DNA from: a virus
Taxonomy: Duplodnaviria > Heunggongvirae > Uroviricota > Caudoviricetes
Virus record (IMG/VR): IMGVR_UViG_2734482784_000005
Location: 1-13,501 of that record
DNA: 13,501 nt
Strand: one strand, 5' to 3'
Shown here: piece by piece, positions 1-13,501 of the stretch
Position numbering within the stretch: position 1 is the stretch's first letter
Layout: every line of letters begins with the position of its first letter
Translations under genes and position numbers: made by a program
Notes under the pieces: generated by a model
Database searches by the model: none
What the model saw: only the letters and a program-made list of their open reading frames with translations
What the model was told of the DNA's origin: nothing

Positions 1-393
1 TCATATTACTGGATAATCATCATCATCCTTCCCTATCCGATTGATAACGAATGTCACTACCCCGACAACTGTAACATCATCCAGGGCCTCACCTTCCAAC
101 GCTTCACCGTCTCGTGTAATAAATGCCCGGCCCATAATTTTTGCAAAATCAGTGCCGCCGCCGTATTGAATTAAAACGGTATCTCCTTGCTTTGGTTTTA
201 CGAAGCAATCCACTACGGCATAGCCGGTTTCTGTTTGTACTATCCGAGTATTGGGGCCGGTACCGCAGAGTGAATCAACGGTCAGACGCCGTTCAACATA
301 GTCAGCAGCTGGCGACGGAAATCCCACGTTATAGCCCTCCGTTTGGGTTGTATAACTGGAACGTGAGCTCATCGCCTTCCTGCGTTGAGACAT
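1..393 (-). CDS. UmuD-like (peptidase S24 family) protein, 130 aa, divergent
   Basis: Complete ORF (ATG at 393..391, stop at 3..1). Contains GFPSPAADYVE at residues 24-34, matching the cleavage-site region of UmuD/MucA/RumA as I recall it, and a C-terminal GDTVLI...FAKI...VVGVV pattern resembling the S24 fold. I could not find a canonical GDSM serine motif by eye. Sits 9 nt downstream of the 403..560 ORF, which follows a LexA box. Confidence 0.5.
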   Translation of the reverse strand: MSQRRKAMSSRSSYTTQTEGYNVGFPSPAADYVERRLTVDSLCGTGPNTRIVQTETGYAVVDCFVKPKQGDTVLIQYGGGTDFAKIMGRAFITRDGEALEGEALDDVTVVGVVTFVINRIGKDDDDYPVI

Positions 394-402
394 CCCGGAA
401 TG

Positions 403-560
403 TCAGTGCTCTATCCACTGGTTAGCCTGGCGCGGTGACCATATCCAGTTAACTTTTGCGAGTTCCCGGATAAAACCGGACGTTGTCACGGTGCGACGGC
501 CATTAGGCTCAATGACAATTGCCTGACGCCAGGCTATTTCGATATCTGAGTTTCGCGGCA
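403..560 (-). CDS. small hypothetical protein, 52 aa, first gene of a LexA-box-controlled operon
   Basis: ATG at 560..558 preceded by GGAGGTGAAGTT (strong Shine-Dalgarno, about 7-nt spacing). The longer track ORF (to 606) would place the start codon inside the LexA box, so the internal ATG is preferred. No family recognised. Confidence 0.45.
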
Positions 561-579
561 TAACTTCACCTCCCGAAAA

Positions 580-599
580 TACTGTTTTTATATACAGTA
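580..599 (-). promoter_or_regulatory. LexA operator (SOS box)
   Basis: Plus strand reads TACTGTTTTTATATACAGTA; minus strand reads TACTGTATATAAAAACAGTA. This is a perfect CTGT-N8-ACAG palindrome fitting the enterobacterial LexA consensus, 19 nt upstream of the ATG at 560. Confidence 0.7.
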
Positions 600-1103
600 G
601 ATTCATTAAGAGATCTGATCAATACAGGTTCCAGCTATCAATCAGGAACACTGAGGAGGAAACCAGTCACCTTTTAGCCTCTGATATTGGTTTCACTTAG
701 TGATTATGTTGTCTATGTGCCAACTATGAACTATCTTTTCTCAAAACCTGCTACTGCAAAATGGATATAAGATGTCACAGACGGACTTGCTGATTGTTGT
801 TTTTACTCTGGGCATTTTAGCCTTTGGCTATTCCATATGGTTCATTTCGAACAGAATACTTTGCTCTATATTTCATAGACTTACAAAGAATATATGAATT
901 GGGATGGTATAGACCCAAATTCATGGTCATTGCCCCTCGACGTCGGAAGGTACTTACAGATCATCTTCGCTCTTAACCTATCACATCGGCACCTACTCCA
1001 TGATGTAACAGCTCAGACCAGAAATATCTGGAAGCTTTAGGCATATTCTTGGAAGATAGACGAGCGCAAAGACGCACACAGCAATGATGTTATGTAGTAT
1101 TTT

Positions 1104-1135
1104 CCCCTTGAGTGTGCCTGCTCAAGGGGGTTTTT
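1104..1135 (+). terminator. rho-independent terminator (plus-strand orientation)
   Basis: Stem CCCCTTGAG (1104-1112), loop TGTGCCTG, stem CTCAAGGGG (1121-1129), then G plus TTTTT (1131-1135). On the minus strand the hairpin is followed by A-rich sequence, so the plus orientation is favoured. Confidence 0.55.
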
Positions 1136-1172
1136 ATCGCCGTATTGTACTGGCAAATATTTGTAAATAGTC

Positions 1173-1201
1173 TTCACCCCCACGCCTGTCACATCGGCCA
1201 C
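1173..1201. repeat. direct repeat copy A (displaced invertase 3-prime end)
   Basis: TTCACCCCCACGCCTGTCACATCGGCCAC matches 1751-1779 at 25 of 29 positions. On the minus strand it encodes VADVTGVGVKTIYKYLP, a second copy of the invertase C-terminal HTH. Confidence 0.7.
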
Positions 1202-1219
1202 ACGCGACTGGACAGGCGG

Positions 1220-1642
1220 TTAGTCCGGTATGTTTCTCGCGCTACTACTGCTTACGTTAACGTCTGGTAATGATCTAGCGGCGCGACGTAAAGCGGCGTT
1301 GAAAGCAATTATAGTGACCGGCCGGCATTGGTACTTCACACGGTTAGAATGGCTCTGAAATAAAAAAACATCTTCTGGATAGCGTTCTCTTCTACGAGCA
1401 ATGATCCCCTCCACTGGAGGGGTTGATTTAACACGTAGCTCCTTCAGGTGACCCTGTTTTCGTATCAGTATCAAGTCACCATCAATATCATCATATCGAA
1501 TACTCAGCAGCCTTCCAGCGCTTAAACCCGTGTGAAAAATTAACGCCCACAAGTCAGCCCATGTATCTGAGATGGAAACAAGATTGCTGTTAATAGTTAA
1601 AAATTGCTCAAAACTTATTGTTTTCTTACCGTTCACGAACAA
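1220..1642 (-). pseudogene. tyrosine recombinase-like fragment (FimB/phage-integrase-like), no ATG start
   Basis: 140-codon ORF with no methionine codon anywhere (the track start is TTG). The TGLSAGRLLSIRYDDIDGDLILI segment resembles the box I region of tyrosine recombinases, but the downstream His/Arg/Tyr catalytic region is missing. Confidence 0.4.
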
Positions 1643-1719
1643 ACCAAACTGTTTTCAAAGCTGAATGAATTGATTAAGCCAAACGTAACATATCAGGAAA
1701 AGTAGTGAAATCTTTGCCT

Positions 1720-1932
1720 TCAAGTCGCCGGGAGGTACTTGTAGATTGTTTTCACGTCCACGCCTGTCACATCAGCCACCTGCTGCCGGGTAGCGCCGTT
1801 CTCCAGCATTCTGCGGCACCGCTCCACCACTTCTTCAGTCATTATCCGGCGGCGGCCGCCGACTCTCTCCTGCTCCATCGCTGCGGACCGACTCGGATGC
1901 ATTCGGCAAATTCTAGGCCGTGATTTTTCCAA
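1720..1932 (-). pseudogene. Hin/Gin/Pin-family serine DNA invertase remnant (C-terminal HTH only)
   Basis: GGRRRIMTEEVVERCRRMLENGATRQQVADVTGVDVKTIYKYLPAT aligns well with the C-terminal DNA-binding domain of Hin/Pin as I recall it (GGRPRAIT...GHPRQQLA...STLYRYFPA). The N-terminal catalytic domain is absent and the ORF begins with a non-ATG codon. Confidence 0.55.
1751..1779. repeat. direct repeat copy B (inside invertase remnant)
   Basis: TTCACGTCCACGCCTGTCACATCAGCCAC; partner of 1173-1201. Confidence 0.7.
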
Positions 1933-2713
1933 TCCTCTCCATCAGATATGCCAGGATGACATCCAGTGTGCTGGTCCCATATGCATATTTGCCGGGGAAA
2001 ACCAAACATTCTGACAAAACGGATGTTAACGGAGACACTGAACCATTGCCTGCTCCGCCAATACTCATTTTTTGAGACGGGCTATACGCTGGGATTGTAT
2101 AGCCCGTCACTTGTCGGCTGGTCACTGCAGACTGATCTGACCGCTGGTATGCAATTGCATAGGATCCAGCAGCCTTGTTAGAGCACATAACTACAGCGCA
2201 GAATAAAGATTGCCCTATATTGTTAGGAGTAAATGCCAGATCGGCCTCGATCCCTCCATTCAGAAAAATCGGGAATGAACCTGCTGACGTTGTACGAATG
2301 CCGACGCCATGAGGTGTGCTTTCCTGGGTTGCGATAACCGCTCTGTCCTGTGGCGTAGCCGGAAGCGCCCCACCTGGCAGCTGATAGATGAATGCAAAAG
2401 TATTGATGTTTGCGTCCATAACCACCGCCGTATCACCAGCCATGCCGGATGCACCGGAGAAATTAAGCCCCTGCAAAACAGAACCATTCAGCTTTGTGGA
2501 TGGCTCGAGGGTCTCCAGTGACTTGAAAAGTCCGCCATCTAATCGGTTAGAGATAGCTACTACTTTTGCACCAGACCCCATTTTTAGAAACTCTGTCTTC
2601 ACTGGTGTCCATACTGATGGGGATAGTTCTGAGATCGCTTTCTCTGCCGCTGTTTGTGAGTACACAGGGAGTAAGGGGTTATTCAGTCCAGTTAGTGTGT
2701 AAATCAGTCTCAT
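1913..2713 (-). CDS. hypothetical protein, 266 aa, cotranscribed downstream of the tail-fibre-like esterase gene
   Basis: ATG at 2713 preceded by GAGGA; starts 10 nt after the stop of the 687-aa ORF. No family recognised; Gly/Ser/Thr-rich. Confidence 0.55.
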   Translation of the reverse strand: MRLIYTLTGLNNPLLPVYSQTAAEKAISELSPSVWTPVKTEFLKMGSGAKVVAISNRLDGGLFKSLETLEPSTKLNGSVLQGLNFSGASGMAGDTAVVMDANINTFAFIYQLPGGALPATPQDRAVIATQESTPHGVGIRTTSAGSFPIFLNGGIEADLAFTPNNIGQSLFCAVVMCSNKAAGSYAIAYQRSDQSAVTSRQVTGYTIPAYSPSQKMSIGGAGNGSVSPLTSVLSECLVFPGKYAYGTSTLDVILAYLMERIGKITA

Positions 2714-2722
2714 TTTTTATCC

Positions 2723-4786
2723 TCAGAAAACGTTAATACGAAAAGCGGGGAGCCAGTCGTAAAGAGTCACGGATGTGTCATACACCCATATGATTCCAGC
2801 GGAAGATCGAACACACCCTCTTGCACCAAGAGTCCGCCCGGAAGGTTTTACAGATGCGCCGCTCTGAAGTGGGTTTTCTGCTGTCGCATAGGAAACGCGC
2901 CCAAAACGTCCAGAGGGGGCGGTCGCCAGGTTAATCAGCACGCCCTTGCCGTCCGAGCTGATCGCGATGCTCGATATAGCAGGTGGAGCACCAGTCTCAT
3001 CCGTGTAGCTAAAGCCGTAATTGGCCAGACCGGAGGTGTTGATCGTAGTCGTGTCCAGCACCAGGTTCGTATACGCTGGGACATTGATTTGTATCTGCGT
3101 GGGTGAGTTCCACACGAAACTGGTCGGAACCATCCCTGACCAGCCGCTCGTAAACCACTCCTGGAGAAGCGCTCTCGCCACAGCTGCTCCGCGCCGGTTC
3201 TGGCCCGCACACGTCAAGTGCAGACCGTCTGAAATAAAATCGTACTGGTACAAACTATTGACCAGCCTGAATTGCTCTTTTCCGTGCAATCGCGTCGACG
3301 CCAGTCGCGCGTACTGGCCTGTAAATGCACCATGCCCGTCATTGACATACCCCAGCTGGGTAATGGCGATAATCGGCGGTTCGTTTTGACCCGTTCTTGC
3401 GATGATGTCGCTGGTGATTTGTCTCTGGTACTGCCTCATCCGTGATTCATACATTCCTTCTCGTAATCCTGACCAGTCCTCGTCGGACTCTCCCTGCATC
3501 CAGTCAACGCAGAGAACAATCGGCAGCCAGCCGCGTGCTTTACAGGCCGTTACGCAGTCTTCGATTGAATCGAGCAGATACTGATATACCTGGTTACCCC
3601 GTTTCTGGTACTCGTAAGCCTGACCAGACTGCGCACATACGATTGATAGCGTGCGCGGCATGATTCCGGTAGCTGCAGCCATATCGCGAATGAAGGTGTT
3701 CGCGAGGCCGCTTGCGGCCGTTTCTTTATCTGTCCCACTTACTGCCTCAACCAGTGGCACCAGAGTAGTGCTGCGTGTCCCTGTACGCCTAACCCCGCCG
3801 CTGAGCATGAAAGCGTTATCAGGATATATCGGCGTTGCTGCGACAATGGTTTGATCGGCGTCAGGACAATATCCTCGAGCGTTGGATTGCCCAGCAGTCA
3901 CAAAGATAAAACATACAGGCACTGTCTCTGAGTAGGGGTACACAGTAGACCCTGACAAATGAAGTCCATACTCAGGGAGCTGGTTGGCATCATCGTCGCC
4001 ACCACCACCGCCATTTCCGTTATTAACAGCTACCAGGCCACCGTCTGAGTAAATCCAGTGCTTCCCACCAACCGTATAAGCTTCAACGATCTGGTTTGTG
4101 GTTGAATCAACCGTCATCCGCCACACTTTTTCACCGCCAATAAACTGCGGTATAGAACCCTCCCGGCCCAGCGCATAGAGTTCGGATTCTTGTTGGGTTA
4201 AAAGTTCGTAATATTTTCCGTCAGGACCGATTTGAATTAATCTGCCGCTTGTATTTAAAAATGGAGCCACGCGGGAAGTCTCCGGATCATATGCTGCCAG
4301 GGTCACGCTGTCTGGCGATACCTGGTATGCGTAGTCGTCACGAACCATCCGCCGTCCGGTTGGCTGCAGCGTTCCAGCGAGGTTGATATACTCATCGGCC
4401 AGAGAGCTTCCGTCCTGACTGCGGACATAGGTTGTTGAACCTGCCGGAATATTCGCAATATCCGCCTGCGCCGCCGCCAGCGTCATGTACTGCCGGCTGA
4501 GAGGGATCAGGTTTTGGCGGGCTTCATCAATAACAGCGTCGGTAGCAGCTGCCATTTTTTTAGTAGCCCCAATTATCGTATCCTGGGCGTTACCAAAACG
4601 ATCTATAAAAGTATCGCTTTCGCTGTTCAGGAAATCATCGTACGCCAGGGCGTTATCATTCAGATCCTTCATGCTATTTGAAGGTCTTGGATTGCCGGTA
4701 TTATATCTTTTGTCCATACCTGTTCCTGTCTTCATCTTTTCAATGAAGCAATTAAGATTGACGCCCCGCCCCTTCAGGGCTAACAT
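2723..4786 (-). CDS. phage tail-fibre/tailspike-like protein with central SGNH/SASA-type carbohydrate esterase domain
   Basis: Long ORF. AGQSNARGY (GQSN motif typical of the SASA/sialate-O-acetylesterase SGNH family) and a downstream DGLHL (DxxH) motif. A long N-terminal region and a C-terminal beta-rich region fit a receptor-binding tail protein. Start is uncertain: ATGs at 4786, 4735, 4717 and 4672 are all possible; the 4717 ATG has AGGAACAGGT upstream. Confidence 0.6.
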   Translation of the reverse strand: MLALKGRGVNLNCFIEKMKTGTGMDKRYNTGNPRPSNSMKDLNDNALAYDDFLNSESDTFIDRFGNAQDTIIGATKKMAAATDAVIDEARQNLIPLSRQYMTLAAAQADIANIPAGSTTYVRSQDGSSLADEYINLAGTLQPTGRRMVRDDYAYQVSPDSVTLAAYDPETSRVAPFLNTSGRLIQIGPDGKYYELLTQQESELYALGREGSIPQFIGGEKVWRMTVDSTTNQIVEAYTVGGKHWIYSDGGLVAVNNGNGGGGGDDDANQLPEYGLHLSGSTVYPYSETVPVCFIFVTAGQSNARGYCPDADQTIVAATPIYPDNAFMLSGGVRRTGTRSTTLVPLVEAVSGTDKETAASGLANTFIRDMAAATGIMPRTLSIVCAQSGQAYEYQKRGNQVYQYLLDSIEDCVTACKARGWLPIVLCVDWMQGESDEDWSGLREGMYESRMRQYQRQITSDIIARTGQNEPPIIAITQLGYVNDGHGAFTGQYARLASTRLHGKEQFRLVNSLYQYDFISDGLHLTCAGQNRRGAAVARALLQEWFTSGWSGMVPTSFVWNSPTQIQINVPAYTNLVLDTTTINTSGLANYGFSYTDETGAPPAISSIAISSDGKGVLINLATAPSGRFGRVSYATAENPLQSGASVKPSGRTLGARGCVRSSAGIIWVYDTSVTLYDWLPAFRINVF
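4758..4786 (+). promoter_or_regulatory. putative sigma-70 promoter for the HTH/acyltransferase operon
   Basis: TTGACG (4758-4763), 17-bp spacer, TAACAT (4781-4786); upstream of the 4819 start. Confidence 0.35.
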
Positions 4787-4818
4787 CGCCTTACGTGTTT
4801 AAACGGTTAAATAAGAGA

Positions 4819-5082
4819 ATGATTTTAATAAATAAATACACCCCTCCAACGCAGGAAGATTTAGCCAGACTGAAATCCGCACTAAATTACTCCGGAAACC
4901 AAATGGCAGGGCTCGCAGGTGTAGCCAGCGATAGCCAATGGCGGAAATACACTGGCGGAGAGAGCCCCAGGGTAATGTCAAGACACATACTGTTTTATAT
5001 TGCAGCTCAGCTTGTTCTGTCTGATGAGCAACTTAACAATGTAATAAATAAAATGCGCGATATTGGCGCGGAGATAAAATAA
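4819..5082 (+). CDS. small XRE-like HTH protein, 87 aa
   Basis: ATG at 4819 (the track start at 4795 is GTG). The segment NQMAGLAGVASDSQWRKYTGGE resembles an HTH_XRE recognition region. Its stop overlaps the acyltransferase start (TAATG). Confidence 0.5.
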   Translation: MILINKYTPPTQEDLARLKSALNYSGNQMAGLAGVASDSQWRKYTGGESPRVMSRHILFYIAAQLVLSDEQLNNVINKMRDIGAEIK

Positions 5083-6173
5083 TGCTTGGCCTAATAAGGT
5101 TTTTTTTGGCATCGTGCGTCATTGCTTTTCACTTAACGGCTCGCATACCTGCACTTGGCAACTTTGCAGTGAATTGCTTCTATGTTATTAGTGGTTTTTT
5201 AATAACATACATTTTGCATGAAACATACAAGTTCAACTTCTCTATGTTTTGGAAAAATAGAATACTGAGGTTATTCCCGGCATATATATTTTTTCTCGTC
5301 ATGGGCTTTCTTATTATAAAATTAATTCCATCCGCAAAGGAATTCCACTCAAACTGGACAGGCAATTTCTTACCTGGAGATTTATTAGGAAACCTCTTAA
5401 TCTTCCCCTGGGCTTTCCTTTCTGATAATGCTGTAGCAAATCCATTCGGTGCCTTTTCATCCATTTATCACTTTGCTATTGATGGTAATAGATTCAGAAT
5501 AGTCACATCATCATGGTCAGTGGGTGTTGAGATAACATGTTATTTTTTATTGTGGCTTTTCATAGCCCGAAATAAATTTACAGCCATTACGTCGATTCTG
5601 CTTTCACTGCTTTATCATGCTTACGTATATGTAGTACACCATTCTTTTGATATGGCGTATTTCCCATTCCTTGCTGCAACACTTCCTTTTAGCATGGGTT
5701 CTCTGGGTTATTTTGCCCATAGAAAGTTCAAAGCTATGTATCTTTCTCCACACAAAGCTTTTTTAATAACATTTATTTGCATCGGGATTTTTATTACCAA
5801 TTGGCATTTATATACAATTAATCCATTAGGTCAGTACAACATAATACTTTACTACACCAATAATGTAATAGCATTGTTTACAACCCTGGTATTATTAAAA
5901 ATAAAGACAAACATACATCTTGAGAAAATACTCAAGTGGTTTGGTGACCTGGCCTATCCAATTTTTCTTTGTCAATATTTTGGTGGATTTCTAGCATGGC
6001 TTGCTATTGGTGGTGAAAATCGTGGCTTATCCATCTTTTTATTAGGCTACCCAATATCAATTGCACTTGGGATCGTTTGTGTAATATTAATAGACAAGCC
6101 ACTAATTAAAATTAGAGCAAAAATAAGGGCGGACGCTCAAAGCAAAAATAATCAGGAAAACTCTTCAAGGTAA
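5082..6173 (+). CDS. acyltransferase family 3 integral membrane protein (O-antigen/polysaccharide O-acetyltransferase-like, OafA/Oac type)
   Basis: 363 aa, multiple hydrophobic helices, NCFYVISGFLITY (the FxxISGF motif of the acyltransferase-3 family), RBS GGAGA 8 nt upstream. Markedly AT-rich relative to flanking genes. Confidence 0.8.
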   Translation: MLGLIRFFLASCVIAFHLTARIPALGNFAVNCFYVISGFLITYILHETYKFNFSMFWKNRILRLFPAYIFFLVMGFLIIKLIPSAKEFHSNWTGNFLPGDLLGNLLIFPWAFLSDNAVANPFGAFSSIYHFAIDGNRFRIVTSSWSVGVEITCYFLLWLFIARNKFTAITSILLSLLYHAYVYVVHHSFDMAYFPFLAATLPFSMGSLGYFAHRKFKAMYLSPHKAFLITFICIGIFITNWHLYTINPLGQYNIILYYTNNVIALFTTLVLLKIKTNIHLEKILKWFGDLAYPIFLCQYFGGFLAWLAIGGENRGLSIFLLGYPISIALGIVCVILIDKPLIKIRAKIRADAQSKNNQENSSR

Positions 6174-6994
6174 ACTAAACCATTCGCTCCTTTTCCTGAT
6201 GAATAGTTACCATTCCCCCCGGCACCACCTGAGCCGGGGAAACCGCCATCATCGCCAGAACTACCGAAGTGGCCATTGCCACCCGTTGATGAAAATGCAG
6301 CTCCTCCAGCCCCGCCAATAAAAGCATCAGAACCATAATACAGACCACCTTGAGATATTCCGCCAGTAATATTTAAAATGTTCCCGCCACTTCCGATACC
6401 TCCAGCAGGAACTGTAGCCCCGCCACCACTCCCTCCAGTAGCTGAGATTAAACTCCCGAACCTTGTATCACCACCATTCCCGCCTTTAGACGAGACACCA
6501 GCAGCAACAGCACTGCCACCAGTACCTATCGTCACAGATATAGTTTCGTTATCAGAAATATTAAATAACCCTTCCGAAAATCCACCAGCACAACCTCCAG
6601 ATGCGCCCACACTAACTGGAGCATTCTGGCCACCTCCCCCCGCTCCCCAAACTTTCACCCGCACTCTTTTCGTCCCTTTAGTTGGAGTGTAAGTCCCTGA
6701 CTTAGTAAAGGTGACAATATTAAGCAGGCGACCGCCACCAATCGCTTTAAGAACCTGTGAATCATCATCAGGATCAAGCTCAAGCCCCGCGCCCTCAACA
6801 ACGTTTATGTGAACCTCGGCCAGATCTGAGGATGGCCGGGGAACGGCCCGCAGTTGCTCAATAATCGCCGCTCTCGCTGCCTGCTGGAACTTGCGCCCTG
6901 TCTCGCTTACCAGATGCCTGCCTTTCAGCGGTCCCTTGCTCGGGGCGCGCCAGTAACTATTTACGCTCGGTGGAAATGGTAAAGTCAGTTTCAT
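6152..6994 (-). CDS. RusA-like (Holliday junction resolvase family) N-terminal domain fused to a glycine-rich C-terminal region, 280 aa
   Basis: N-terminus MKLTLPFPPSVNSYWR matches the RusA signature (LPWPPSNNRYYR in E. coli RusA). The C-terminal ~170 aa are Gly-rich low complexity. Strong RBS AAGGGGG upstream of ATG 6994, and only 9 nt after the dam-like stop. Confidence 0.6.
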   Translation of the reverse strand: MKLTLPFPPSVNSYWRAPSKGPLKGRHLVSETGRKFQQAARAAIIEQLRAVPRPSSDLAEVHINVVEGAGLELDPDDDSQVLKAIGGGRLLNIVTFTKSGTYTPTKGTKRVRVKVWGAGGGGQNAPVSVGASGGCAGGFSEGLFNISDNETISVTIGTGGSAVAAGVSSKGGNGGDTRFGSLISATGGSGGGATVPAGGIGSGGNILNITGGISQGGLYYGSDAFIGGAGGAAFSSTGGNGHFGSSGDDGGFPGSGGAGGNGNYSSGKGANGLVYLEEFS

Positions 6995-7003
6995 TTAGCC
7001 CCC

Positions 7004-7843
7004 TTAAAGGATCGCTACAACGTCTTTTGCGACTTCCCGCGTACTGCTTTTGCAGGAGATCGAACGGCGCGCGTTGATGAATTGCAGGTTAAAACCATGC
7101 TCCCGGTACAGGTCGAGAACCTTCGGTGCAGATGAGTTAGAAATCACTACCCGAGCCCCACGGTGAAAGGCTGATACGCATTGCTTCGCCAGGTCTACCT
7201 GGTTCTCCCAGTTAAAACCACCAGCGGCGTAGGCGGTGAATCCGGTTGTTCCCGGCATCGGTTCGTAAGGCGGATCGCAGTAAACCACATCCCCTTTCCC
7301 GGCCAGGCTGATTGTCCGGCGGTAATCAGCCGTCATGAATACGCAGTTATGCGCCATAGCCGCGAAGGCTTTCATCTCATCCATCGGGTAATACGGAGCC
7401 TTGTAGCCTCCCCAGCCCACATTGAACTTGTTCGCCTGGTTGTAGCGCATCAGACCATTGAAGCAATGCCGGTTGAGATACAGGAATGCAGCTGCGCGTT
7501 CAGTAGCATCCAGCGTCTGAGAGTTGAACTCGGAACGGATCAGCTCATAGCGCTCTGGTGACCGCATGTGCTCGAACATCCAGCGGGCCTTCAATTCCAC
7601 TTCATCCGGCACGACCGCTAACATCTGATACAGATTAATCAGGTCCGGGTTAACGTCCGCCAGCAGGTAATCTGCGTGCTTTTCGCTGTTCAGGAATACC
7701 GACCCACCACCAACGAATGGCTCTACACGAACTGCACCGGCCCTGCTCCACCAGGAACTGGCCGCGCTACAAGTTGCGACCTGCGGTATTGTGTTGATAA
7801 ACTGTTCATGCGTTAGTAATCTCCACTGATAACGGCACGCCAC
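7004..7843 (-). CDS. DNA adenine methyltransferase, Dam/D12 class
   Basis: EPFVGGGSVFLN (motif I, FxGxG) near the N-terminus and VVYCDPPY (motif IV, DPPY) near the C-terminus, in Dam order. There is no in-frame ATG upstream of motif I, so the start is either GTG at 7843 or the gene is damaged. Confidence 0.75.
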   Translation of the reverse strand: MACRYQWRLLTHEQFINTIPQVATCSAASSWWSRAGAVRVEPFVGGGSVFLNSEKHADYLLADVNPDLINLYQMLAVVPDEVELKARWMFEHMRSPERYELIRSEFNSQTLDATERAAAFLYLNRHCFNGLMRYNQANKFNVGWGGYKAPYYPMDEMKAFAAMAHNCVFMTADYRRTISLAGKGDVVYCDPPYEPMPGTTGFTAYAAGGFNWENQVDLAKQCVSAFHRGARVVISNSSAPKVLDLYREHGFNLQFINARRSISCKSSTREVAKDVVAIL

Positions 7844-7870
7844 GACGCCAGGAGCTGCAACTCGCTGGCG

Positions 7871-8323
7871 TCACTTCTTTTTGCGTGAAAAAAGCGTGAT
7901 GATTGCGGCAATCTCTTCTTCACGAGCTGCCAGGTGACGGCGGTGATGCACCATGATTTCTTCGGCCTCGTGCCTTTCAATAACGCCATCTTCAAGCGCC
8001 TGTTCGATAATCTGATCAACCTGCCCCCTGGCGGCAGAGGTACGCATTGCCCGGCTAAACAAGTCCACGCGGTCCAGTTCTTCCAGGTGCGGAACATCCA
8101 CCAGCAGAGCACCACGACGGCGGGCAAAATATTCAGCCAGGTGAGATGTATTCGAGATGTCCTCCATCGCTTCCAGTTCGCTGACTTCGAAGAAACGACA
8201 GCCGTTTTTCTCGTAAAGGTTGTTGTTAAACTGCGTCACCGTCATTCCCAGTGCGCCAGCCATTGCTTCGCGCCCACCTGGATATGCTTTGCACATAGAT
8301 TTCACGACTTCTTTGAGGTTCAT
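7871..8323 (-). CDS. CII-like/YdaT-like regulatory protein, 150 aa
   Basis: ATG at 8323 preceded by AAGGAG. Lies directly downstream of the Cro-like gene, the position YdaT occupies in Rac-type prophages. Family assignment is by architecture and loose similarity. Confidence 0.6.
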   Translation of the reverse strand: MNLKEVVKSMCKAYPGGREAMAGALGMTVTQFNNNLYEKNGCRFFEVSELEAMEDISNTSHLAEYFARRRGALLVDVPHLEELDRVDLFSRAMRTSAARGQVDQIIEQALEDGVIERHEAEEIMVHHRRHLAAREEEIAAIITLFSRKKK

Positions 8324-8351
8324 ACCTACTCCTTTCAAACTCGGGTGGTAG

Positions 8352-8615
8352 TTACAAATTTGATGCAGTGACATTAAGCTTTCGCATTGCTGCACCTCTT
8401 AAATAGGCCCAGTCAATGTCAGGACGAAGCTCTTCGCAGGTGACAGCACCACCAGTAGCTTTCTCAATCGCAGGACATCGTTCCGCAGGTATTTGCCTAA
8501 TGCCCGTTGTCCATTGATTCACTGTTGGTGATGAGATGCCTAGATTCCTTGACAAAGCGGCTTGTCCCCCAACAATGCGGCAGGCTTCACTGATTGCTTC
8601 AAGGCTACTTCTCAT
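8352..8615 (-). CDS. Cro/YdaS-like HTH regulator, 87 aa
   Basis: ATG at 8615 with AGGA upstream. The segment LSRNLGISSPTVNQWTTGIRQIPAERCPAIEKATGG is typical of YdaS/Cro-type HTH proteins. Divergent from the cI-like gene across an operator-containing intergenic region. Confidence 0.65.
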   Translation of the reverse strand: MRSSLEAISEACRIVGGQAALSRNLGISSPTVNQWTTGIRQIPAERCPAIEKATGGAVTCEELRPDIDWAYLRGAAMRKLNVTASNL

Positions 8616-8649
8616 AAACGGATTCCTATGATTTCCACACAAGCAGATA

Positions 8650-8724
8650 TTAGGCTAAGCCTAATAAACAATCAATAGGAATTGCCTAAGCTATAGGTTA
8701 TGAGGATTATTAGGCAATGCTTAG
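8650..8724. promoter_or_regulatory. OR-like operator region between divergent cI-like and cro-like genes
   Basis: Perfect palindrome TTAGGC-TAA-GCCTAA at 8650-8664, a related half-site GCCTAAGC near 8684-8691, and TTAGGC-AAT-GCTTAG at 8710-8724. Confidence 0.5.
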
Positions 8725-9193
8725 TGGTAAAGAATTGGGCCGAGCGATCGAGCAGGCCATAGACAAGAAGCTTTCAATAGGTTCTGCCAAGAGTAAGGCG
8801 GAAATCGCACGTCATTTCAAAATAAAACCCCCATCAATCCATGACTGGATCAATAAAGGCTCCATATCGAAAGAGAAGCTACCAGAGCTTTGGAACTACT
8901 TTTCTGATGTTGTGGGCCCCGAGCACTGGGGACTAAAGGGATACCCGCTAACTGATACATGTGAGCCCGCAACAGATCCCATAGTTAAAAATGGTTCTAT
9001 TGACGAGCTCTATAATAAGGCTTCGAGAGAAAAAAAGGCTATCATTGATTTTGTCCTCTTAGAGCAAGGACAGCGTATACCTGGCTGGGTAGATAGCGAT
9101 GCTAAAGCATATTTAGACTCATTAGAGATGAAGATAAGGAGATGGGCAGAGCAGGAGGAAGATGGAAAAAAACAAACGAAAGCCAGAGCTTAA
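8717..9193 (+). CDS. cI-like/RacR-like prophage repressor, 158 aa, HTH with no S24 peptidase domain
   Basis: N-terminal HTH (KAEIARHFKIKPPSIHDWINKGSI), RBS GAGGA 10 nt upstream, divergent to the cro-like gene. Size and gene order match the RacR-YdaS-YdaT arrangement. Confidence 0.65.
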   Translation: MLSGKELGRAIEQAIDKKLSIGSAKSKAEIARHFKIKPPSIHDWINKGSISKEKLPELWNYFSDVVGPEHWGLKGYPLTDTCEPATDPIVKNGSIDELYNKASREKKAIIDFVLLEQGQRIPGWVDSDAKAYLDSLEMKIRRWAEQEEDGKKQTKARA

Positions 9194-9363
9194 GCTTATA
9201 TGGTCTAACGGACAATATCTCTAAGCTCCATACATGTTAAAAGCTCTGAGATTGATTCGCTTGCATAACTCAATCCCTGTGGGGGATTGGCTTGTATGAA
9301 GCCTATCCGGGATTGTGACTTGCTTTGATTTAACAGCAGGTTTTCACTTTGCATGGAGGATGC

Positions 9364-10518
9364 ATGGAAAACTTCAAAGTACGTCTTAAAAATCACATTG
9401 AACATGTTAAAAATGTTAGAGAACACTGCACAACGGAAGAGACAACCAAGCAGGCTTTGATACTTCCTTTTTTGGACATCCTAGGCTTTAACGCATATGA
9501 TCCGCAAAAAGTCAAAGCTGAATATGGTGCGGACTTCCCTGGTGTGAAAGTGGGTGAGCGTGTAGATTATGCTCTATTCTGCCAAGGTGTTCCCGTTATG
9601 TTTATTGAGGCCAAAGGTTGTAAAGAAAAAATGGACAACCATTGTCCTCAATTATCTAGGTATTTTAATTCTACTCCTGAGGTGACAATATCAGCAATTA
9701 CTAATGGAATTGAATGGCGCTTTTTTACGGATCTCAATGAAAAAAATATAATGGATTCAACGCCATTTTTACGAATCATGATGGATGACATTAAAGATTC
9801 TGATGCTGAGCAATTATTTAGATTCCGCCATGACAAATTCAAACCAGAGGCCCTAAGAACCCTTGCAGAAGAGAGTGTTTATATTTCTGCATTTGTTAAA
9901 GTCGTGAGTACAAGCCTTCGGGAAGTAGATCATGAATTTGTTAGATATGTTGCAGGACGAGCAAATATTGGTCGTCAATTAAATCAAAGATTTATAGAAA
10001 CAATAACTCCATTGGTGAGGCAGGCCGTAGAGAGGTCAGTAAGTGAAATGGTTGTTTCTGGTCTTTCATCAAGAACATCTATTCCTGAATTAGAATCCCC
10101 TGCTGATGTAACTGAAAATAATGTAATTGATGAGCGCGCAGATATTGTCGATGCAGAGAACCCCAACATAGTAACAACCTATAATGAAAGAATTTTATTT
10201 GAAAAAATCTGTTCTATTATAGGCCCTGCATACGAACTTCAAGCCAAAGATACAGAGTCCTATTACTCTATTCTTTTCCAAGGAAAAACAAACCGCTGGC
10301 TGGTTCGCTATTATGACAAGAAGAATCGCTCAAACATACAGTTACCAATTGATATCAATGAAATAACCGGTAATGAAATTAAAAGAGCCGGACTTGAACA
10401 TGATAACAATCGTATTTTCATTGAACATCCCGAGGATGTATTAAGGATTTCAGGTTTAATCCTTGATTCTTTACAATATGTACAGAATGATGAGAATTTC
10501 AGAAAGCGTCGTCCATAA
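9364..10518 (+). CDS. standalone HsdR-N-type PD-(D/E)xK nuclease domain protein, 384 aa, with uncharacterised C-terminal domain
   Basis: ATG at 9364 preceded by GGAGGA. N-terminal ~130 aa follow the type I restriction HsdR N-terminal nuclease pattern: TKQALILPFLDILGF ... RVDYALF ... VMFIEAKG ... QLSRYF ... ITNGIEWRFF (D...EAK...Q..Y..TNG..W). AT-rich. Located between the cI-like gene and the pL/OL-like site. Confidence 0.7.
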   Translation: MENFKVRLKNHIEHVKNVREHCTTEETTKQALILPFLDILGFNAYDPQKVKAEYGADFPGVKVGERVDYALFCQGVPVMFIEAKGCKEKMDNHCPQLSRYFNSTPEVTISAITNGIEWRFFTDLNEKNIMDSTPFLRIMMDDIKDSDAEQLFRFRHDKFKPEALRTLAEESVYISAFVKVVSTSLREVDHEFVRYVAGRANIGRQLNQRFIETITPLVRQAVERSVSEMVVSGLSSRTSIPELESPADVTENNVIDERADIVDAENPNIVTTYNERILFEKICSIIGPAYELQAKDTESYYSILFQGKTNRWLVRYYDKKNRSNIQLPIDINEITGNEIKRAGLEHDNNRIFIEHPEDVLRISGLILDSLQYVQNDENFRKRRP

Positions 10519-10547
10519 TCATAAAAACACTAGCTTTATTTCACACA

Positions 10548-12143: not shown

Positions 12144-12298
12144 GCAACGTAACCAAACCAACCAGCAAGGGGAAATTTGATGGGGCAGTTGATTACCTCT
12201 GCTCCGATGAGGCTCGTTTTCTGGTTATGCGGGGCGACTATAGCGAAGCAGATATTATCCAAGCGTCTGTATCCCAAGATGTGATTGATGCTGAATGA
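12140..12298 (+). CDS. small protein, 52 aa, in the excisionase position directly upstream of int (MSNVTKPTSKGKFDGAVDYLCSDEARFLVMRGDYSEADIIQASVSQDVIDAE)
   Basis: Translated by hand. ATG overlaps the preceding stop (ATGA), GGTGGA 5 nt upstream, and the 3-prime end overlaps the integrase start. No excisionase motif recognised; the assignment is positional only. Confidence 0.35.
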   Translation: MSNVTKPTSKGKFDGAVDYLCSDEARFLVMRGDYSEADIIQASVSQDVIDAE

Positions 12299-13262
12299 GT
12301 GGATGCCGAAGGGTGTGTTTTTCCGCCCTTCCGGTTACTACTGGAAGCCAGGAGGTACTACCGAGAATCTAGCCCCAGCAAACGCTTCTAAAGCGGAGGT
12401 TTGGTTAGCTTACGAGAAAGTCGTTGAAGGTCGAAAAAAACTACTCACCTTTCAACAATTGTGGAAAAAATTTTTAAATAGTGCTGACTATGCAGACCTT
12501 GCCCCCAGGACACAAAAAGATTACCTGGCACATGAAAAATACTTGTTAGCGGTTTTCGGCGATGCAGAAGCAAAGGCCATTAAACCAGAACACGTCCGAC
12601 GCTACATGGATGCACGTGGTAAAAGAAGCCGTGTTCAGGCTAATCACGAGCATAGTTCAATGTCTCGTGTATACCGCTGGGGTTATCAGCGTGGTTATGT
12701 ACCAGGTAATCCGTGTGTTGGTGTCGATAAGTTTCCTAAACCCCAGCGCGACCGCTACATAACTGATGAAGAGTACATAGCTATCTTCACTCATGCGACA
12801 CCTGCAGTTAAAGCCGCGATGGAAATTGCGTATCTTTGCGCTGCAAGGGTATCTGATGTTCTTAAAATGAACTGGAATCAGATTCTTGATAAAGGAATTT
12901 TCATACAGCAAGGTAAAACTGGTATTAAACAGATCAAAGCCTGGACTGAGCGTCTTAGTGCGGCTGTGGATATTTGCAGGGAATGGGGACAGGATGGCCC
13001 TGTTATCAGGACAATGTATGGTGAGCGTTATTCATACAAGGGATTTAATGAAGCATGGAGAAAAGCGAGAAACGCGGCTTCTGAAGAACTTGGTAGGCCA
13101 CTTGATTGCACCTTCCATGATCTAAAGGCTAAAGGGATCTCAGACTATGAAGGATCTGGCAGGGATAAGCAAAAATTCAGTGGTCATAAGACAGAATCAC
13201 AGGTACTTGTTTACGACAGGAAAGTTAAAATCAGCCCCACGTTGAACAAGAAAATGAGATGA
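12288..13262 (+). CDS. int: lambda-family tyrosine integrase
   Basis: 324 aa. N-terminal GVFFRPSGYYW resembles the lambda Int arm-binding region (NLYIRNNGYY). C-terminal HDLKAKG and HKTESQVLVYDR fit the His and Tyr catalytic motifs. Adjacent to the tRNA gene. Start could be ATG 12288 or ATG 12303. Confidence 0.85.
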   Translation: MLNEWMPKGVFFRPSGYYWKPGGTTENLAPANASKAEVWLAYEKVVEGRKKLLTFQQLWKKFLNSADYADLAPRTQKDYLAHEKYLLAVFGDAEAKAIKPEHVRRYMDARGKRSRVQANHEHSSMSRVYRWGYQRGYVPGNPCVGVDKFPKPQRDRYITDEEYIAIFTHATPAVKAAMEIAYLCAARVSDVLKMNWNQILDKGIFIQQGKTGIKQIKAWTERLSAAVDICREWGQDGPVIRTMYGERYSYKGFNEAWRKARNAASEELGRPLDCTFHDLKAKGISDYEGSGRDKQKFSGHKTESQVLVYDRKVKISPTLNKKMR

Positions 13263-13269
13263 TTCTTTG

Positions 13270-13301
13270 GCGTCGGAGCATGCTTCGGCGCTAGAATTTT
13301 T
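13270..13301 (+). terminator. putative terminator after int
   Basis: Hairpin GCGTCGGAGC-ATG-CTTCGGCGC (with G-U pairs) followed by TAGAATTTTT. Confidence 0.4.
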
Positions 13302-13374
13302 CTCAGTGGATTTTCTCAATTTTTCTCATCGGGATGCAGGTCACTGAAAGGGAATGCTGTAAGTGTTTGAATAG

Positions 13375-13464
13375 TGGCGGAGAGAGGGGGATTTGAACCC
13401 CCGGTAGAGTTGCCCCTACTCCGGTTTTCGAGACCGGTCCGTTCAGCCGCTCCGGCATCTCTCC
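13375..13464 (-). tRNA. serU: tRNA-Ser (anticodon CGA), 90 nt including CCA
   Basis: Minus strand reads GGAGAGATGCCGGAGCGGCTGAACGGACCGGTCTCGAAAACCGGAGTAGGGGCAACTCTACCGGGGGTTCAAATCCCCCTCTCTCCGCCA: 7-bp acceptor stem, CGA in the anticodon loop, long variable arm typical of tRNA-Ser, TTCAAAT T-loop. Confidence 0.9.
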
Positions 13465-13501
13465 GTTCAGATGGTTGCCATGATGCCAGGAAATTTGGCA
13501 T

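Follow-up and report, generated by a model that had tools for sequence, protein, structure and literature searches.

The 280-codon open reading frame (ORF) on the minus strand of the window, i.e. the whole 13,501-nt stretch of DNA that was analysed, is very probably a deletion scar in a decaying prophage located at the E. coli tRNA-Ser(CGA) gene next to mtfA. The ORF joins the 5′ part of a phage rusA gene in frame to the 3′ part of a gene for a glycine-rich protein that is found in tail-fibre position elsewhere, and such an in-frame rusA'-'fibre chimera is an ordinary, already annotated kind of prophage-decay event. The breakpoint, both parent genes, the residues lost from either of them and the genes missing from the window can be read directly from the comparisons described here. 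The ORF, its parts and its neighbours are as follows (window coordinates):

5082–6173, plus strand: convergent Acyl_transf_3 gene (Pfam), with a 22-nt overlap with the 3′ end of the fusion
6152–6994, minus strand: chimeric rusA'-'glycine-rich tail protein ORF, 280 aa, ATG start (ORF list)
6152–6805, minus strand: 3′ part of the glycine-rich gene in tail-fibre position, codons 45–261 of WP_001310746.1 (261 aa)
6167–6700, minus strand: Gly_rich_2 (PF21722) domain, fusion residues 99–276 (Pfam, 38.2 bits, cut-off 24.3)
6378–6692, plus strand: proline-rich antisense ORF, 104 aa, ATG start (ORF list)
6806–6807, no strand: deletion junction, a 2-nt TA microhomology common to both parents (three-way alignment)
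6806–6994, minus strand: rusA-derived 5′ part, codons 1–63 of a 125-codon phage rusA, with the native start codon
6995–7003, minus strand: native rusA ribosome-binding spacer GGGGGCTAA, with a GGGGG Shine-Dalgarno motif inside (read from the sequence)
7004–7843, minus strand: dam, D12-class, in the same early-right operon as the fusion (Pfam MethyltransfD12, E 1.3e-45)

The sequence-only reading of this DNA had placed the gene after dam, and dam indeed lies directly upstream of the fusion ORF, with 9 nt from its stop codon to the ATG of the fusion. The dam-rusA spacing in intact phages is likewise 9 nt, and the spacer GGGGGCTAA upstream of the fusion ATG should, by its sequence, provide a good ribosome-binding site. 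The dam gene itself is N-terminally truncated by a second deletion, which the BLAST breakpoint against the Klebsiella phage KpF5 places at 7724/7725; its MethyltransfD12 match begins only at profile position 23 and the motif PFLKWAGGK is missing in the alignment. At the other end of the fusion, the convergent acyltransferase gene is the native neighbour of the tail gene. It is present downstream of the free-standing glycine-rich tail gene in every intact context seen, and the same arrangement is found in E. coli HS, XYEH3314 and 20KM2222.

The junction can be resolved to the base. Aligned jointly with E. coli HS and a Klebsiella phage, the window is HS-like up to position 6807 and phage-like from position 6806, and the BLAST boundaries concur with this assignment, as the HS match spans positions 1–6807 and the phage matches run from 6806 onward. 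The two shared bases, TA, are the last two bases of codon 63, which is ATA in rusA but GTA in its fusion partner; codon 64 and all following codons belong to the tail gene. The fusion is thus composed of residues 1–63 of the 125 residues of RusA joined to residues 45–261 of the 261 residues of the tail protein, and the GC content at third codon positions shifts at the junction from 0.60 in the rusA part to 0.33 in the fibre part. One of the two explanations offered from the sequence alone, namely a deletion that fused the rusA 5′ end to the glycine-rich 3′ end of a tail-fibre or other late gene, is confirmed by this breakpoint at 6806/6807 and by the occurrence of both parents as intact genes elsewhere.

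We used window positions 6000–7100 as a megablast query against 5426 complete E. coli genomes and 50,697 phage records, and the matches fell into three classes. Ten of the 5426 E. coli genomes cover the entire query at 99.8–99.9% identity, about 19 genomes including E. coli HS match query positions 1–808 only, and more than 40 genomes together with 23 phages (ST101-KPC2phi6.3, KpF5 and others) match query positions 807–1101 only. In the few records with two matching places the best place is the intact rusA-dam region; the higher-scoring 808-nt tail-gene match is therefore absent from them. An assembly artefact as the source of the fusion is rejected by the identical junction in ten independent complete genomes.

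Both parent genes have a defined place in intact relatives. Intact lambdoid phages and prophages carry O, dam, rusA (125 aa) and DUF968, followed by Q or DUF1133, lysis genes and terminase. A full-length fusion gene between dam and Q in such prophages had been named beforehand as an argument against a deletion; what stands there instead is the normal 125-aa rusA, followed by DUF968 and Q. The glycine-rich protein is elsewhere encoded by a free-standing gene of about 250–290 codons in tail-fibre position, directly after homologues of Mu gp43–gp48 (DNA circularisation protein, baseplate proteins, baseplate J and YmfQ), and it follows YmfQ/gp48 in HS, XYEH3314 and 20KM2222 as well as on metagenomic contigs. 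Strain 20KM2222 contains an apparently complete prophage that encodes the identical fibre protein WP_001310746.1, and there the fibre gene and a rusA gene of another allele are two separate genes that point in the same direction at a distance of about 23 kb. Between them lie YlcG, Q, holin, lysozyme, terminase, portal, capsid, sheath, tube and baseplate genes. No YlcG, Q, lysis, terminase, head, tail or baseplate genes were detected in the window by means of the ORF list and Pfam. The suggestion that a deletion would also explain the missing Q, lysis and morphogenesis genes hence agrees with the position of these genes between the two parents in 20KM2222. Thus, in relatives the two halves reside in separate intact genes, the breakpoint is sharp and the intervening genes are gone. 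The exact undeleted ancestor, i.e. one prophage carrying this rusA allele together with this fibre gene, was not found among the 5426 E. coli genomes and 50,697 phage records; in the search for such an ancestor, no record combined the two halves at high identity.

Residues 1–63 of the fusion are identical (63/63) to RusA of the Klebsiella phage ST101-KPC2phi6.3 (125 aa), and on the nucleotide level window positions 6806–7100 share 98–99.7% identity with the intact rusA-dam region of lambdoid phages and prophages from Klebsiella and E. coli, the range being 97–99.7% for the window from 6806 onward. These 63 residues also match phrog_34 'RusA-like resolvase' (E 1.8e-12), of which they cover profile positions 75–134, compared to 75–194 for the intact phage RusA. 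The RusA-like N-terminus noticed by the sequence-only reading is therefore genuine, but with 63 residues it is longer than the roughly 50 assumed. Identity and synteny after dam together establish the descent of this part from a rusA gene, while a full RusA domain above the Pfam gathering threshold is not present in the fusion. With Pfam RusA (PF05866), neither the fusion (E ≤ 0.1) nor residues 1–63 alone (E ≤ 1) gave a match, compared to 56.7 bits for the intact phage RusA. Since PHROGs and the direct identity reveal the origin of the fragment, we attribute the absent Pfam match to truncation and not to missing ancestry.

In E. coli RusA, the catalytic residues are D70, D72, K76 and D90/D91, and residues 65–69 form an Arg-rich DNA-binding stretch (PMC1636454). 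The parent phage RusA was aligned to 1Q8R, the solved E. coli RusA, and to 2H8C, its D70N variant, as references, which places the catalytic and Arg-rich positions at about 72–95 of the phage protein. All of them lie beyond the junction (>63) and are hence absent from the fusion. No more than the first strand, the flexible loop and helix alpha1 is left in the RusA fragment, which, judged from this content, would be unable to form the four-stranded sheet. AlphaFold2 confidence is low for fusion residues 1–70, but this value is uninformative, as the alignment contained a single RusA homologue only. When compared to RusA of the E. coli prophage DLP12 (1Q8R/2H8C; PF05866), the fusion shares the rusA start, the ribosome-binding site, the post-dam position and the first 63 residues, but stops before the Arg-rich stretch and D70, D72, K76 and D90/91 and would be left without the four-stranded sheet and two helices. 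The RusA portion should accordingly be regarded as a fragment and not as an active member of the RusA family.

The larger portion of the fusion, residues 64–280, corresponds to residues 45–261 of WP_001310746.1 with one substitution, and the whole of window positions 1–6807 differs from E. coli HS by a single mismatch. Gly_rich_2 is the sole Pfam match on the fusion protein, and residues 81–280 match phrog_863 'tail' (E 4.7e-44). An AlphaFold2 model built from 37 sequences reaches a pLDDT above 90 for fusion residues ~90–279. Foldseek matches to the glycine-rich domain include the fibre of cyanophage Pam3 (7YPX, E 1.4e-9), the tail tip of mycobacteriophage Bxb1 (9D93, E 8.6e-8) and the glycine-rich domains of ALK/LTK, as well as many viral tail-fibre models with E values of ~1e-16. 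The glycine-rich region is thus predicted to be a complete, folded domain of fibre type and not mere low complexity. The earlier description of the remainder as glycine-rich stands, given the Gly_rich_2 match, whereas its assumed size of about 170 residues has to be corrected to 217 and its classification as plain low complexity does not fit the model.

What the fibre half has lost is its attachment segment. In the intact protein, residues 1–66 match the N-termini of tail fibres (phrog_1858, 2617, 6859 and 1833), and in a tblastn search of the intact fibre protein against phages only these 66 N-terminal residues were matched, the partners being tail proteins of Serratia phage BZS1 and Citrobacter phage phiNP; the glycine-rich part was masked by the low-complexity filter in this search. 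Of the ~66 residues of the N-terminal attachment segment, 44 are missing from the fusion. Moreover, the fusion is not located downstream of baseplate wedge genes (Mu gp47/gp48 homologues) but follows dam instead. It contains the same complete, confidently predicted domain as the Gly_rich_2 short tail-fibre and tail proteins of Mu-like tail modules, exemplified by WP_001310746.1, but differs from the latter in that the first 44 residues are missing, there are no baseplate neighbours and no virion is encoded that could carry the protein.

In a search of 5.8 billion proteins, full-length homologues of the fusion were confined to one cluster of 63 members with 99% identity, and all other matches were either a free-standing Gly_rich_2 tail protein or RusA. 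The ORF is unbroken in all ten carrier genomes, with the ribosome-binding site retained, and these carriers differ from each other by only a few substitutions per 9 kb. A Ser-to-Ala change (position 6301) is private to the window copy, and a Gly-to-Ser change is found in the cluster representative. Compared to the 97.4%-identical copy of XYEH3314, only nine differences are found, five synonymous and four non-synonymous with respect to the minus frame, a number too small to draw on. IS elements are inserted in most carriers. In the RefSeq annotation of the carriers, the equivalent of 6805–6994 is listed as a RusA pseudogene, 'incomplete; missing C-terminus', and recent RefSeq releases call, with an internal start codon, a 'glycine-rich domain-containing protein' of 170 aa. 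In the PGAP pipeline of RefSeq, the rusA piece thus already counts as a truncated pseudogene, and a 'RusA with glycine-rich tail' is an annotation trap that arises from prophage decay. This is a clean negative result, which leaves the understanding of RusA and of tail fibres unchanged and provides a case with a base-resolved junction and a 2-nt microhomology.

What the chimera might do, if anything, has to be weighed against these observations. The product would be made, if at all, only upon transcription of the repressed early-right operon. Since the residues with which RusA binds and cuts junctions are gone together with most of the fibre attachment segment, the chimera is most likely a functionless chimeric pseudogene, a conclusion drawn from the loss of the active site and of the attachment segment. 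The other explanation that had been offered from the sequence, a genuine resolvase of the RusA family with a novel C-terminal glycine-rich extension, can appeal to the RusA sequence of the 63 N-terminal residues and to a gene placed after dam like rusA. It does not survive the comparison, however, as the RusA part stops before every catalytic residue and lacks the Arg-rich DNA-binding residues as well (PMC1636454), the RusA domain is halved in phrog_34 (75–134 of 75–194) and unmatched in Pfam, the extension shares 99.8% identity with a portion of a separate tail gene and the architecture occurs in the one 99% cluster only. The missing active site refutes this explanation, and we assign practically no probability to it.

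A different function is conceivable for the fibre half. The ORF is unbroken in the ten carriers and preceded by a good ribosome-binding site, so translation is possible, and the chimera might be expressed and co-opted as a soluble glycine-rich fibre domain with a new N-terminal tag, for example in superinfection exclusion or receptor masking. In one variant, the protein would be translated on prophage derepression and bind the cell-surface receptor of related phages from inside or following lysis, or serve as a decoy. Were this true, the scar would be a newborn gene in which a nuclease leader is fused to a receptor-binding domain. The in-frame ORF in all ten carriers, its native ribosome-binding site and a Gly_rich_2 domain that is predicted to be complete and confidently folded are compatible with such a role. 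Nevertheless, we consider it highly unlikely: the fusion has neither a signal peptide nor a secretion context, it ends a repressor-controlled operon in an element that is still decaying (the N-terminus of dam is deleted and most carriers contain IS insertions), and private non-synonymous changes occur in the window copy and in the cluster representative. In addition, an in-frame join is expected by chance in 1/3 of cases, and there are no independent occurrences of the fusion.

The strand opposite to the glycine-rich part contains the proline-rich ORF at 6378–6692, which the sequence-only reading had identified as the expected mirror of GGN-rich coding sequence. This interpretation holds. When the codons of the minus-strand gene were shuffled synonymously, the longest stop-free antisense stretch was 118±26 aa, compared to 112 aa observed, and 68% of the shuffles attained the observed antisense open length. 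The diverged homologue P0004, whose C-terminal domain has diverged, likewise possesses an open antisense stretch of 96 aa, but with an unrelated sequence, whereas conservation of the minus-frame protein extends across genera to identities as low as ~35%. The proline-rich ORF matched no Pfam or PHROG family. A scan of 5900–9300 for promoters and terminators gave counts at chance level, with no usable expression signal on either strand; the promoter-like matches numbered five compared to 3.6±2.0 expected. The proline-rich antisense ORF is hence a non-coding composition shadow of the GGN-rich gene. That it is instead a real plus-strand gene, as might be argued from its 104 codons with an ATG and from a sigma-70-like match (10/12) that ends at the start codon, appears extremely improbable. 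A ribosome-binding site would not fit behind the putative −10 element, promoter-like matches are no more frequent than chance provides, the length is predicted by the shuffles, no Pfam or PHROG family is matched, and the frame that is conserved to ~35% identity is the minus frame, the antisense frame of the diverged homologue encoding a different sequence.

The comparisons with relatives suggest the following history of the element. The ancestral phage would have combined a lambdoid early region (int, ParB, a RacR-type repressor, cro, cII/YmfL, O, dam, rusA and Q) with a late region consisting of a lambda-like head, a Mu-like contractile tail and a 261-aa glycine-rich fibre protein encoded after the gp47/gp48 baseplate genes. 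One illegitimate recombination at the 2-nt TA would then have linked rusA at codon 63 with the co-oriented fibre gene at codon 45, and the 3′ half of rusA, the remaining nin region, Q and the lysis, terminase, head, tail and baseplate genes would have been lost. The join would have been in frame by chance (1 in 3) and thereby have left a 280-codon ORF behind the ribosome-binding site of rusA itself. That this was a single event within one prophage, and that it removed about 23 kb, is what we infer from the arrangement in the relatives.

A second deletion derivative at the same site bears on this history. Over the 818 nt of window positions 12684–13501, which comprise the 3′ part of the integrase gene and tRNA-Ser(CGA), HS differs by one mismatch. 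HS has kept, at the same yodB/tRNA-Ser/mtfA locus, the late genes from terminase to fibre and has lost everything between the truncated integrase and the terminase region. Neither of the two arrangements can be derived from the other. Since HS shares the site, the left arm and the integrase 3′ end with the window but has a different deletion, a common, more complete ancestor is indicated, and the simplest reading is that two independent deletions arose from one more complete mosaic prophage, of which HS kept the late genes and the lineage analysed here the early genes. The two deletion derivatives at one tRNA-Ser site illustrate the erosion of defective prophages.

The early region of the window is ~97–99% identical to that of the Klebsiella phage KpF5, whose att-adjacent arm also matches window positions 1–236 at 97–99%. 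These matches leave room for a deletion between two prophages: an older HS-type remnant would have been joined at tRNA-Ser by the tandem insertion of a KpF5-like lambdoid phage, and the sequence lost later would have stretched from the rusA gene of the incoming phage, through the att junction, into the fibre gene of the remnant. KpF5 is a siphovirus, and its late genes show no relationship to the HS-type myovirus module, although its early region and att arm match the window, and intact lambdoid siphovirus prophages occupy the same tRNA-Ser site in other E. coli. Furthermore, the integrases of these phages are conserved at 98.8–99.6%, so that the near-identity of HS and the window (1 in 818 nt) is weak evidence of common descent, and the genomes and phage records searched contained no undeleted ancestor. 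On the other hand, a tandem origin needs more events, the KpF5-type att arm (1–236) directly adjoins the HS-type module in HS too, in keeping with one mosaic phage, and intact phages that join a lambdoid early region to this myovirus late module do exist. We thus regard the tandem origin as rather unlikely and favour the deletion within one mosaic prophage. The element closely resembles the deletion chimeras described for defective ('grounded') prophages (PMC6379469), with which it shares a large internal deletion with minimal microhomology, the loss of lysis and morphogenesis genes, the retention of the integrase and the immunity region and the IS decay in sister strains. There is no essential difference from these chimeras; slightly unusual are the in-frame join and the long, clean ORF to which it gave rise.

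Comparison with the Klebsiella lambdoid phage KpF5 revealed a second deletion junction in the window, at positions 7724-7725. About 1.28 kb that is present in KpF5 is absent from the window at this point, with the loss of replication gene O and of the beginning of dam (~29 codons).

7004-7843, minus strand: dam ORF, its 5' end cut by the 7724-7725 deletion

The N-terminal PFLKWAGGK motif is gone from the dam ORF, which begins with unrelated residues instead. Judged from this altered start, the methylase of the window may be inactive as well.

Deletion derivatives were also found elsewhere. In E. coli HS, the tRNA-Ser/mtfA site is likewise occupied by this prophage, there as a different deletion derivative.

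NC_009800.1, 2062552-2082159: prophage derivative of E. coli HS (region L001/L004)

Here, the integrase is cut off at the position equivalent to 12684 of the window and the entire early region is missing. The derivative retains terminase, portal and baseplate as well as an intact fibre gene (261 aa); the genes from capsid to tape measure have also been lost, internally. Another chimera involving the same glycine-rich tail gene is P0007, encoded on an ENA contig of 1554 nt. It starts with ~350 aa from the N-terminus of a Mu gp43-like DNA-circularisation protein and continues with the C-terminal ~95 aa of the glycine-rich protein. This composition suggests that a different lineage underwent a deletion of its own, or that the contig was mis-assembled.

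The attachment site of the prophage is tRNA-Ser(CGA), which directly follows the tyrosine integrase gene.

12285-13262, plus strand: tyrosine integrase gene
13375-13464, minus strand: tRNA-Ser(CGA)

In the sister genomes, which share the fusion junction, the opposite end is marked by a partial tRNA (annotated as 'tRNA-OTHER') located just to the left of window position 1. The annotation of most of these ten genomes places ISKpn26 or IS3-family elements inside the region equivalent to the window. One of them, strain 127, has window positions 9424-10529 replaced by ISKpn26 within an endonuclease gene that is intact in the window, where it is flanked by ParB and a gene for a RacR-type repressor.

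9349-10518, plus strand: HSDR_N/DUF450-type endonuclease, 389 aa (phrog_4225, E = 2e-152; PF04313)

A sigma-70-like match (TTGAGA-18-TAAAAT, 10/12; 6350-6379, plus strand) extends as far as the start codon (ATG) of the antisense proline-rich ORF. Matches of this kind occur in the region about as often as expected by chance.

A sugar de-acetylating spike and an acyltransferase also lie side by side in the window.

2723-4786, minus strand: tail-spike-like protein, 687 aa, with a SASA/SGNH carbohydrate-esterase domain
5082-6173, plus strand: Acyl_transf_3 (O-antigen acetylase-like) gene

The spike gene adjoins the Acyl_transf_3 gene and a small HTH gene. The N-terminal ~145 aa of the spike are 97% conserved in the prophage of strain XYEH3314, where the catalytic C-terminus is different; the N-terminus of the KpF5 tail spike shows weaker similarity.

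Further signs of decay are two short ORFs that share a motif and, at the left end, a 130-aa ORF beside a pseudogene labelled in RefSeq as a frameshifted 'DNA polymerase V'.

1-393, minus strand: 130-aa ORF at the window's left end, adjoining the pseudogene
1037-1201 and 1720-1932, both minus strand: short ORFs with the common motif ADVTGV.VKTIYKYLP

The ORF at 1720-1932 is an N-terminally truncated HTH protein according to RefSeq. We take the two motif-sharing ORFs to be remnants of a decayed invertase/recombinase gene; the intact relative in strain 20KM2222 possesses a recombinase gene at the corresponding end.
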